A DNA stretch of 12,317 nucleotides. Source: a virus. Lineage: Duplodnaviria > Heunggongvirae > Uroviricota > Caudoviricetes. The DNA is taken from IMG/VR virus record IMGVR_UViG_2690316115_000015, positions 1-12,317 of that record. The stretch is one strand, 5' to 3'. Each line of letters begins with the position of its first letter. Position 1 is the stretch's first letter. Positions 3,838-5,981 of this stretch are shown here, piece by piece. Made by a program: the position numbers and the translations under genes. The notes beneath the pieces are model-generated. The model was not told the origin of the DNA, did not search any database, and was given only the letters and a program-made list of their open reading frames with translations.

Positions 3838-5981
3838 TGAAAAATGAAACTAATACCATGGCGACGAAAAACGACAACGGAGCCACGCCGCGTTTTTCTC
3901 AGCGCCAGTTACAGGCGCTTTGTTCTGATATTGACAGTCAGCCTAAATGGCGCGATGCCGCAAACAAGGCCTGTGCGTATTACGATGGTGACCAGTTGCC
4001 ACCAGAAGTTCTTCAGGTACTGAAAGATCGCGGTCAGCCGATGACCATCCATAACCTCATCGCGCCTACCGTTGATGGTGTTCTGGGTATGGAGGCCAAA
4101 ACGCGGACTGATCTGGTGGTGATGTCAGACGAGCCAGATGATGAAACTGAAAAACTGGCTGAAGCTATTAATGCTGAATTTGCCGATGCATGCCGCCTTG
4201 GCAATATGAATAAAGCCCGCTCTGATGCCTATGCGGAACAAATCAAGGCGGGGCTCAGCTGGGTGGAGGTCAGACGGAACAGCGATCCGTTCGGGCCTGA
4301 GTTTAAGGTGTCTACTGTCAGCCGGAATGAAGTGTTCTGGGACTGGCTCAGCCGGGAAGCTGATTTAAGTGACTGCCGCTGGCTGATGCGCCGCCGCTGG
4401 ATGGATACCGATGAGGCAAAAGCCACATTCCCGGGAATGGCTCAGGTTATCGATTATGCCATTGATGACTGGCGTGGTTTTGTCGATACCACGGTTACTG
4501 AAGGCCAGCCCAGTCCGTTGATGAGTGCATGGGAAGAGTATCAGTCATGGGATCGTAAGGAGAACGAATGGCTTCAGCGTGAACGCCGTCGTGTGCTGCT
4601 TCAGGTGGTTTATTACCGTACATTCGAGCGTCTTCCGGTGATTGAACTCAGTAATGGACGGGTGGTGGCCTTTGATAAAAATAATCTGATGCATGCGGTG
4701 GCTGTGGCATCCGGGCGGGTGCAGGTGAGAGTCGGGCGGGTAAGTCGTATTCGTGAAGCCTGGTTTGTGGGACCGCACTTTATTGTGGATCGCCCCTGCA
4801 GTGCGCCGCAGGGGATGTTCCCGCTGGTTCCCTTCTGGGGATACCGGAAGGATAAAACCGGGGAGCCTTACGGGCTGATTTCCCGGGCCATTCCGGCACA
4901 GGATGAGGTGAATTTTCGTCGTATAAAACTGACGTGGTTGCTTCAGGCCAAACGCGTGATTATGGACGAGGATGCCACCCAGTTGTCAGACAACGAGCTG
5001 ATGGAGCAGATCGAGCGTCCGGATGGCATTATTAAACTGAATCCGGCCCGAAAAAATCAGAAAAGCGTTGCTGATGTTTTCCGGGTTGAACAGGATTTTC
5101 AGGTTGCCAGCCAGCAGTTTCAGGTCATGCAGGAGTCGGAAAAACTTATCCAGGACACGATGGGGGTTTATTCCGCATTTCTCGGGCAGGATTCAAATGC
5201 ATCGTCCGGCGTGGCGATCAGCAACCTGGTGGAGCAGGGAGCCACAACCCTTGCCGAAATCAACGATAACTACCAGTTTGCCTGCCAGCAGGTGGGAAGG
5301 CTGTTGCTCGCTTATCTTCTCGATGGCCTGAAAAAGCGGCGTAATCATGCGGTGGTGATTAATCGTGATGATCGCCAGCGTCGCCAGACCATTGTTCTCA
5401 ATGCTGAAGGTGATAATGGTGAACTGACCAATGATATTTCAAGGTTAAATACACATATTGCGCTGGCTCCTGTTCAGCAGACACCGGCGTTTAAGGCACA
5501 GCTTGCACAGCGAATGTCAGAGGTTATTCAGGGGCTGCCACCTCAGGTGCAGGCCGTCGTGCTCGACCTGTGGGTTAACCTTCTGGATGTGCCGCAGAAA
5601 CAGGAATTTGTCGAACGTATTCGTGCGGCGCTGGGGACACCAAAATCACCGGATGAGATGACCCCGGAAGAGCAGCAGGCCGCTCAGCAGCAACAGGCCC
5701 AGGAGCAGCAACAACAGGAACTGCAGATGCGCGAAATGGCAGGCCGGGTGGCTAAACTGGAAGCAGAAGCTGCCAGGGCACAGGCAGCTGCGCAACGGGA
5801 TAATGCTGGCGCACAACGGGATGTCGCCGCGGCACAGGGACAGCGTTATGTGGATGCGCTCAACCAGGCGCATACGGCAGAAATCATTACCGGCATACAG
5901 AATATGGAACAGGAGCAGGAAGCTCTTCAGCAACAGATGCTACATACACTACAACAGCGGATGCATGAATTGCCGCTATGA
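3837..5981 (+). CDS. Portal protein (putative) with long C-terminal Gln/Ala-rich helical extension
   Basis: 714 aa ORF immediately after the large terminase and translationally coupled to it. Size and position fit a portal. The C-terminal ~110 residues are low-complexity and helix-prone (EEQQAAQQQQAQEQQQQELQ..AKLEAEAARAQAAAQRD..). No portal-specific motif was verified. Confidence 0.72.
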   Translation: MKNETNTMATKNDNGATPRFSQRQLQALCSDIDSQPKWRDAANKACAYYDGDQLPPEVLQVLKDRGQPMTIHNLIAPTVDGVLGMEAKTRTDLVVMSDEPDDETEKLAEAINAEFADACRLGNMNKARSDAYAEQIKAGLSWVEVRRNSDPFGPEFKVSTVSRNEVFWDWLSREADLSDCRWLMRRRWMDTDEAKATFPGMAQVIDYAIDDWRGFVDTTVTEGQPSPLMSAWEEYQSWDRKENEWLQRERRRVLLQVVYYRTFERLPVIELSNGRVVAFDKNNLMHAVAVASGRVQVRVGRVSRIREAWFVGPHFIVDRPCSAPQGMFPLVPFWGYRKDKTGEPYGLISRAIPAQDEVNFRRIKLTWLLQAKRVIMDEDATQLSDNELMEQIERPDGIIKLNPARKNQKSVADVFRVEQDFQVASQQFQVMQESEKLIQDTMGVYSAFLGQDSNASSGVAISNLVEQGATTLAEINDNYQFACQQVGRLLLAYLLDGLKKRRNHAVVINRDDRQRRQTIVLNAEGDNGELTNDISRLNTHIALAPVQQTPAFKAQLAQRMSEVIQGLPPQVQAVVLDLWVNLLDVPQKQEFVERIRAALGTPKSPDEMTPEEQQAAQQQQAQEQQQQELQMREMAGRVAKLEAEAARAQAAAQRDNAGAQRDVAAAQGQRYVDALNQAHTAEIITGIQNMEQEQEALQQQMLHTLQQRMHELPL

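Follow-up and report, generated by a model that had tools for sequence, protein, structure and literature searches.

The window, the whole stretch of 12,317 nucleotides analysed here (Caudoviricetes; IMGVR_UViG_2690316115_000015), is the head-morphogenesis module of a 933W/phi24B-like short-tailed Sepvirinae prophage. On its plus strand, an ORF in the small-terminase position (1335..2150) is followed by the large terminase gene (2131..3837), which directly precedes the gene for a P22-type portal of 714 aa (3837..5981; Pfam PF16510). Downstream of the portal lie an ORF in the scaffold position (6139..7146), the major capsid gene (7170..8384; Pfam Phage_capsid_3), and then adaptor and fibre genes, all on the same strand. 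The order of terminase, portal adjoining the large terminase, scaffold position, and capsid is also that of phi24B. The sequence-only reading had called the portal putative, and the label can now be given with confidence: Pfam P22_portal PF16510 matches it with E=2.9e-131 (439.3 bits against a cut-off of 26.1) over portal residues 31–648 and profile positions 7–594 of 594, and the gene is flanked by the large terminase gene on one side and by the scaffold and capsid genes on the other. At the DNA level, the portal gene matches that of Shigella phage POCJ13 (genus Diegovirus) with 100% identity. Because the window is 96.9% identical to POCJ13 outside the portal, it belongs to a related prophage and not to POCJ13 itself. 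As a side observation, a consensus terminator scan of 5700–6300 raised no flag, although a hairpin that does fold can be made out there, with a U-run behind it.

The feature under study, 5640..5981, shares the reading frame of the portal ORF (3837..5981, plus strand) and codes for residues 602–714 and the stop codon. Its earlier description as a Gln/Ala/Glu-rich low-complexity C-terminus was accurate, and the translation agrees with the sequence quoted then. The last 113 residues contain 23% Gln, 18.6% Ala, and 11.5% Glu, together 53%, against 23% for these three residues in the portal body (residues 1–601). The entropy in 30-residue windows is 2.7–2.9 bits at residues 601–675 and 3.2–4.0 bits elsewhere. 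Pro and Gly account for only six positions in residues 610–714, which carry a net charge of −7. Following the domain names used for P22 (PMC5290284) and phi24B (bioRxiv 10.64898/2026.04.10.717836), the tail is preceded by the crown helices (approximately residues 556–600; 5502..5636, plus strand), a region fully occupied and conserved in the 100-sequence family alignment. A Pro-rich crown-to-barrel linker, TPKSPDEMT (residues 601–609; 5637..5663, plus strand), then runs into a PEE motif at residues 610–612, which is the family majority consensus. Residues 610–696 (5664..5924, plus strand) form the barrel helix, corresponding to the part of the phi24B portal barrel covered by the cryo-EM model. 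The distal tail, residues 697–714 (5925..5978, plus strand), lies beyond the phi24B model and has the lowest conservation and occupancy in the family alignment.

An AlphaFold2 (AF2) monomer was built from the alignment of 100 family representatives with 26–59% identity to the query, and reached a pLDDT of 88.6 and a pTM of 0.81. The predicted model has the canonical portal fold, with wing, stem, clip, and crown. In a Foldseek search against the PDB, the top 50 matches were all phage portals or vertex/tail complexes containing a portal, with a probability of 1.00; the best were GP4 (8jov, E=1e-31), Pan3, KHP30, P22 (8tvu, and 3lj5 at full length), and Sf6 (7sp4, 7sfs). The crown was predicted as helices 550–566, 569–582, and 588–599, and the linker as mostly non-helical. 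Directly after crown and linker, the model places two tail helices, residues 610–663 and 673–711, the second of which extends the predicted helix through most of the distal tail. The tail had been thought helix-prone, and these helices bear the claim out, the monomer showing no overall disorder in this region. Confidence is uneven along the tail: the pLDDT is ~73–88 in the first helix up to residue 650 and falls beyond, is <50 at residues 656–676 around a low-confidence break at 664–672, and is 56–80 in the distal part of the second helix (residues 690–711). The cryo-EM model of the phi24B barrel continues through residues 664–672, where the AF2 monomer breaks.

The barrel has been seen in a nearly identical portal. 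The portal of phi24B, gp72 (vB_EcoP_24B, HM208303), also has 714 aa and aligns with the window portal at 96% identity without gaps, so that the residue numbering of phi24B carries over. Cryo-EM of this Stx phage described a dodecameric portal at the capsid vertex with a barrel of long helices reaching into the capsid interior; after ejection, the barrel could be modelled between Pro610 and Val696, whereas the intact virion displays it only as a putative helical trace (bioRxiv 10.64898/2026.04.10.717836). Pro610 is common to both portals, and residue 696 is Val in phi24B and Ala in the window portal. The Arg-rich loop 501–527, unresolved in the cryo-EM paper, is identical in the two proteins. 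The two phages are nevertheless distinct, phi24B being a Traversvirus and the window a different prophage close to POCJ13. Of the 28 substitutions that separate the two portals, 19 lie in the tail, where several Gln residues of the poly-Gln part are replaced by Ala, Leu, or Glu in one relative to the other. Since our prediction is of a monomer only, the twelve-helix tube for the window portal rests on the phi24B homolog, by analogy with which the twelve helices would be joined in a tube round the channel axis.

The tail is a feature of the entire family examined, which has roughly 3,200 members. In an aligned set of 132 full-length representatives of 50%-identity clusters, a post-crown tail was present in 132/132, ranging from 69 to 426 aa with a median of 132; full-length homologs lacking the extension numbered 0/132. 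The family tails are similar in composition, being rich in Gln, Ala, Glu, and Lys, and in the 100-sequence alignment their longest Pro-free run has a median of 85 residues. The suggestion that the tail could be the equivalent of the P22 C-terminal helical barrel is thus supported by the phi24B cryo-EM structure of a 96%-identical portal, by the AF2 helices, and by the family-wide presence of the tail.

A further part of the same claim, that the tail is strongly coiled-coil-prone, is not well supported, as the heptad periodicity is no stronger than that of shuffled sequence either here or in the P22 barrel. In a Fourier test of hydrophobic periodicity against 2000 shuffles, a cruder approach than a dedicated coiled-coil predictor, the 3.5-residue periodicity of residues 610–714 gave z = 0.33 for the residue set AILMVFWY and z = 1.25 for ILMVFWY. 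The P22 barrel gave z = 0.6 and 0.5, and all these values are within chance. No significant periodicity at 3.5, 3.6, or 3.67 residues, covering heptad and hendecad patterns, was found in the window tail, the phi24B tail, or the P22 barrel. Because the heptad periodicity is not significant, a strict coiled coil is no more than putative for the tail. The P22 barrel is likewise described as having only weak coiled-coil propensity and inducible folding (PMC5290284). The test also returned a weak 3.75-residue signal (z = 3.4), one among 12 tests and uninterpretable alone.

We propose that residues ~610–714 are the barrel domain of a P22-type portal, a reading to which we assign a probability of about 0.9. 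Its direct support consists of the portal identity, the predicted helix, the presence of the tail throughout the family, and the cryo-EM barrel of the phi24B portal. In each of the twelve subunits, the crown would be followed by a single long helix of mildly acidic character, and the helices together would form a tube ~13–15 nm long, as estimated from 87–102 helical residues at 1.5 Å per residue, by which the DNA channel would be prolonged inside the capsid. The helices would make only weak side-by-side contacts, and the barrel would fold inducibly, as reported for P22 and Sf6, where lateral helix contacts are weak and barrel folding is inducible (PMC5290284, PMC9728967). The tube would surround the last-packaged DNA. 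It might take part in sensing a full head and in retaining the end of the genome before the channel is closed by the tail, and might offer ejection proteins and DNA a place to dock and a way out. The distal part of the barrel might be disordered and available to ejection proteins. These functional roles would be carried over from P22 and Sf6. In P22, the last-packaged DNA lies both around and inside the barrel, for which a part in the DNA-sensing maturation switch of the portal has been proposed (PMC5290284). The last 50 residues of P22 gp1 (676–725) are dispensable, as cited at second hand from PMC4992974. Our literature searches found no genetic test of barrel function in the Stx-phage group and no relevant truncation or infectivity study of the P22 barrel. 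The Gln/Ala/Glu composition would reflect selection for a soluble, helix-forming rod of fixed length that does not stick to DNA, rather than for a particular sequence.

The same tail could also be viewed as an intrinsically disordered low-complexity appendage, with the role of an entropic spacer or of a flexible arm for docking ejection or scaffolding proteins, and with a helical tube that is transient or absent in the virion. We regard this as quite improbable. The low AF2 confidence at residues 656–676 and 690–711 would fit such an appendage, as would the fast evolution of the tail sequence and the mere putative helical trace in the intact phi24B virion. In P22, the barrel is not folded either in solution or in the procapsid (PMC5290284), and for the virion it has been suggested that about half of this barrel lacks order and binds ejection proteins (PMC4992974). 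However, the phi24B barrel has a reliable cryo-EM model for residues 610–696 in the ejected state, and AF2 predicts helix and not coil for residues 610–663, with pLDDT ~73–88 up to residue 650. The tail also keeps its exact length across diverged prophages, which is atypical of a pure spacer. Disorder is more aptly described as another state of this barrel domain, most plausibly applying to residues 697–714.

The tail diverges rapidly in sequence while retaining its length. Compared with phi24B, the tail has diverged by 16.8% at the amino-acid level and the body by 1.5% (19/28 differences in the tail; Fisher p=3e-10), with no indels. Among the codons differing from phi24B, the non-synonymous:synonymous counts are 19:25 in the tail (113 codons) and 9:76 in the body (601 codons). 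From these codon differences and the constant length, the tail is under relaxed sequence constraint and tight length constraint within the group. Sequence change in the tail is about tenfold faster than in the portal body, with the length preserved, a point that is only mildly new. The portal gene has 2145 nt in 30/30 phage records among the matches listed. A megablast survey with the tail as query matched 72 of 5,426 complete E. coli genomes, and 60/60 E. coli complete genomes among the matches listed have the exact tail length at 84.6–100% DNA identity; this survey covers part of the group, since the more diverged O157-type tails were probably missed by megablast.

Length changes do occur at low frequency. 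Tail-length variants make up 13 of ~2,079 contig observations (~0.6%), and deletions are found in four of the 120 closest protein clusters (P0090, P0094, P0101, and P0107). Only two direct repeats were found in the tail, and the deletions lie on them. The first is an imperfect, Gln-codon-rich pair, 5666–5696 and 5684–5714 (5666..5714, plus strand), with a spacing of 18 nt and 68% identity; here P0090 and P0094 are without QQQAQE (6 residues), and P0101 has lost 7 residues from the Gln tract. The second is the exact 9-mer CAACGGGAT with copies at 5793 and 5814 (5793..5822, plus strand), 21 nt apart and encoding AQRDNAG and AQRDVAA, where P0107 has lost AQRDNAG (7 residues). Slippage is therefore occasional, yet the tail length is strongly conserved in the Stx-phage group. 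The sequence-only reading had seen a repetitive CAG/CAA/GCN stretch that may vary in length between isolates. Codons 613–627, nearly all of which are CAG, CAA, GCN, or GAR, fit the first part loosely, but Tandem Repeats Finder detected no array in 5500–6100 at a minimum score of 30. As for the second part, close relatives are constant apart from the rare variants above, and variation in length holds only for the wider family with its tails of 69–426 aa.

It is in principle conceivable that the Gln-rich tract is a contingency locus, in which frequent slipped-strand changes of the barrel length would tune packaging or ejection, and the rare in-frame variants of −6, −7, and −7 aa, two of these three distinct deletions removing 7 residues, do fall exactly on short direct repeats. 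Such a locus is nevertheless extremely improbable here, considering the absence of a tandem array, repeats that are short and imperfect or just 9 nt, the scarcity of variants (13/~2,079), and an unchanged length in the 60 listed E. coli genomes and the 30 listed phage records. We give virtually no credence to the idea that the odd tail composition stems from an overlapping gene, either the ORF 5646..5933 (minus strand, 95 aa) or 5803..6039 (plus strand, 78 aa): both ORFs exist mechanically, but neither is annotated in the POCJ13 RefSeq record, the antisense ORF has no Pfam match, and long antisense ORFs are expected because, going by the genetic code, CAG, GCN, and GAR codons give no stop codons when reverse-complemented. 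A constrained second frame, antisense or +2, is ruled out by the high synonymous divergence of the portal frame, which such a frame would suppress (25/113 tail codons and 76/601 body codons with synonymous changes relative to phi24B).

The barrel as such is already known from the cryo-EM of phi24B, as a known domain in a known family and in a well-studied phage group. For the window, the outcome is a firm annotation of residues 610–714 as the barrel domain and nothing new in kind. The comparative additions are small: the tail occurs in every relative examined, evolves in sequence at a much higher rate than the core of the portal, and has a length that is fixed within the Stx-phage group, with a roughly six-fold range across the family. 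As a tentative extension, which we consider rather unlikely, the barrel might act as a molecular ruler in Stx-type phages, with its length and not its sequence being under selection. The idea draws on the approximately ten times faster amino-acid change of the tail with no indels down to ~85% DNA identity, on two of the three rare deletion types being 7 residues, or about two helical turns, by which the helix-helix register would be largely kept, and on the tail lengths of 69–426 aa across the family. If the barrel length co-varied with capsid size or genome length, the barrel might be a tunable full-head sensor or a guide for genome spooling. In short-tailed phages, the portal barrel is believed to keep hold of the DNA end that was packaged last, and to contribute to the timing of both packaging termination and ejection onset. 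Short-tailed phages include the Shiga-toxin-converting phages, which spread stx genes.

Among the known systems, the barrels of P22 gp1 (~600–725; PDB 3LJ5, 5JJ3) and Sf6 gp3 (600–671 modelled; PDB 7SFS) are post-crown C-terminal helices of ~100–125 residues, as in the window portal. Both share with the window tail a net acidic charge and the lack of significant heptad periodicity, and the charge of −7 agrees with the P22 barrel being mildly acidic on its outside (PMC5290284). However, the P22 and Sf6 portals have only ~14–24% identity to the window portal, and a single-sequence phmmer search of the PDB did not retrieve them at E <0.01, so that a profile was needed. The 100-sequence family profile reached Sf6 gp3 (7sfs) with E=1.5e-18 over chain residues 403–693 and P22 gp1 (3lj5) with E=1.7e-9 over chain residues 450–676, in both cases through the barrel region. 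Pairwise BLASTP aligned tail residues 609–705 with P22 585–672, including a common TPEEQQ motif at the crown-barrel junction; such tail alignments to the P22 and Sf6 barrels may be inflated by compositional bias, and the junction motif and the post-crown position are firmer. Gln, Ala, and Glu make up 38% of the P22 barrel and 56% of the window tail. The capsids also differ, with T=7 for P22 (PMC4992974) and T=9 for the phi24B type. The P22 barrel reportedly requires DNA or tert-butanol in order to fold (PMC5290284). The phi24B barrel, in contrast, is better ordered after DNA ejection than in the full virion, opposite to the prediction of the P22 model, in which DNA induces folding. As the phi24B barrel is clearest after ejection, the functional model derived from P22 may not apply in detail.

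The portal of Ralstonia phage GP4 (PDB 8JOV) is the best match to a solved structure both by sequence (E=1.7e-64, aligned to residue 668) and, in the Foldseek search, by fold, at ~24–27% identity to the window portal. It has 781 aa and so a longer tail, much of which is unmodelled in a deposited chain of only 547 residues. GP4 has also been named by the phi24B authors as the closest portal-tail architecture (bioRxiv 10.64898/2026.04.10.717836).

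Two long alternative-frame ORFs overlap the region encoding the portal barrel domain, one of 95 residues at 5646-5933 (-) and one of 78 residues at 5803-6039 (+). A Pfam search with the antisense ORF (5646-5933) returned no match. A codon-by-codon comparison with the portal of the Stx phage phi24B shows no suppression of synonymous changes to the portal codons where the alternative ORFs overlap the barrel-coding region. The most likely explanation for both ORFs is that they arise as a side effect of the Gln/Ala/Glu codon composition.

Within the portal itself, residues 501-527 (5337-5417) form an Arg-rich loop, RRNHAVVINRDDRQRRQTIVLNAEGDN, for which the phi24B cryo-EM map has no resolved density and for which the phi24B authors proposed contact with DNA (bioRxiv 10.64898/2026.04.10.717836). 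The AlphaFold2 monomer model predicts a beta-hairpin in this loop, with strands at residues 504-509 and 516-521. A natural variant among the closest portal clusters (P0083) lacks three residues of the loop, aligned as RQR at 513-515.

The portal stop codon is followed by a non-coding gap of 157 nt (5982-6138) before the ORF at the scaffold position, compared with 13 nt for the equivalent gap in P22; the portal-scaffold gap of phi24B is equal in size to that of the window. The gap contains a GC-rich hairpin of 10 bp at approximately 5998-6025, GGAACCCCGU(CAUCGU)ACGGGGUUUU, followed by a U-run, an arrangement resembling an intrinsic terminator. Folding of the 64-nt segment that carries the hairpin gives -18.4 kcal/mol, with a z-score of only -1.57 against shuffled sequences, and a consensus terminator scan of 5700-6300 did not flag the hairpin and U-run.

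Downstream, the 216-residue ORF at 9890-10540 (+) matches Pfam SU10_adaptor (E=4.1e-31), which fits one of the two adaptor rings that have been described for phi24B (bioRxiv 10.64898/2026.04.10.717836). The tail-fibre ORF at 10537-12317 (+) continues past the window end and encodes an Ala/Glu-rich helical segment and then long collagen-like Gly-X-Y repeats with one interruption; the published description of the phi24B lateral fibre gp61 fits this ORF (bioRxiv 10.64898/2026.04.10.717836). On the minus strand, 10945-12246 holds long ORFs rich in P/L/S, which are mirror artefacts of the Gly-X-Y repeats of the fibre ORF.

Upstream of the terminase genes and on the opposite strand, an ORF of 204 residues at 151-765 (-) matches the histidine phosphatase superfamily (Pfam His_Phos_1, E=1.3e-6, 28.7 bits against a cut-off of 21.7) and contains an RHGER motif. 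This ORF may be a cargo ('moron') gene. It lies in positions 1-1248, which are unmatched in the compared stretch of Shigella phage POCJ13. The portal gene of POCJ13 is 100% identical to that of the window, and positions 1597-10895 taken whole are 96.9% identical with 11 gap openings. This uneven match is the mosaicism typical of lambdoid prophages.
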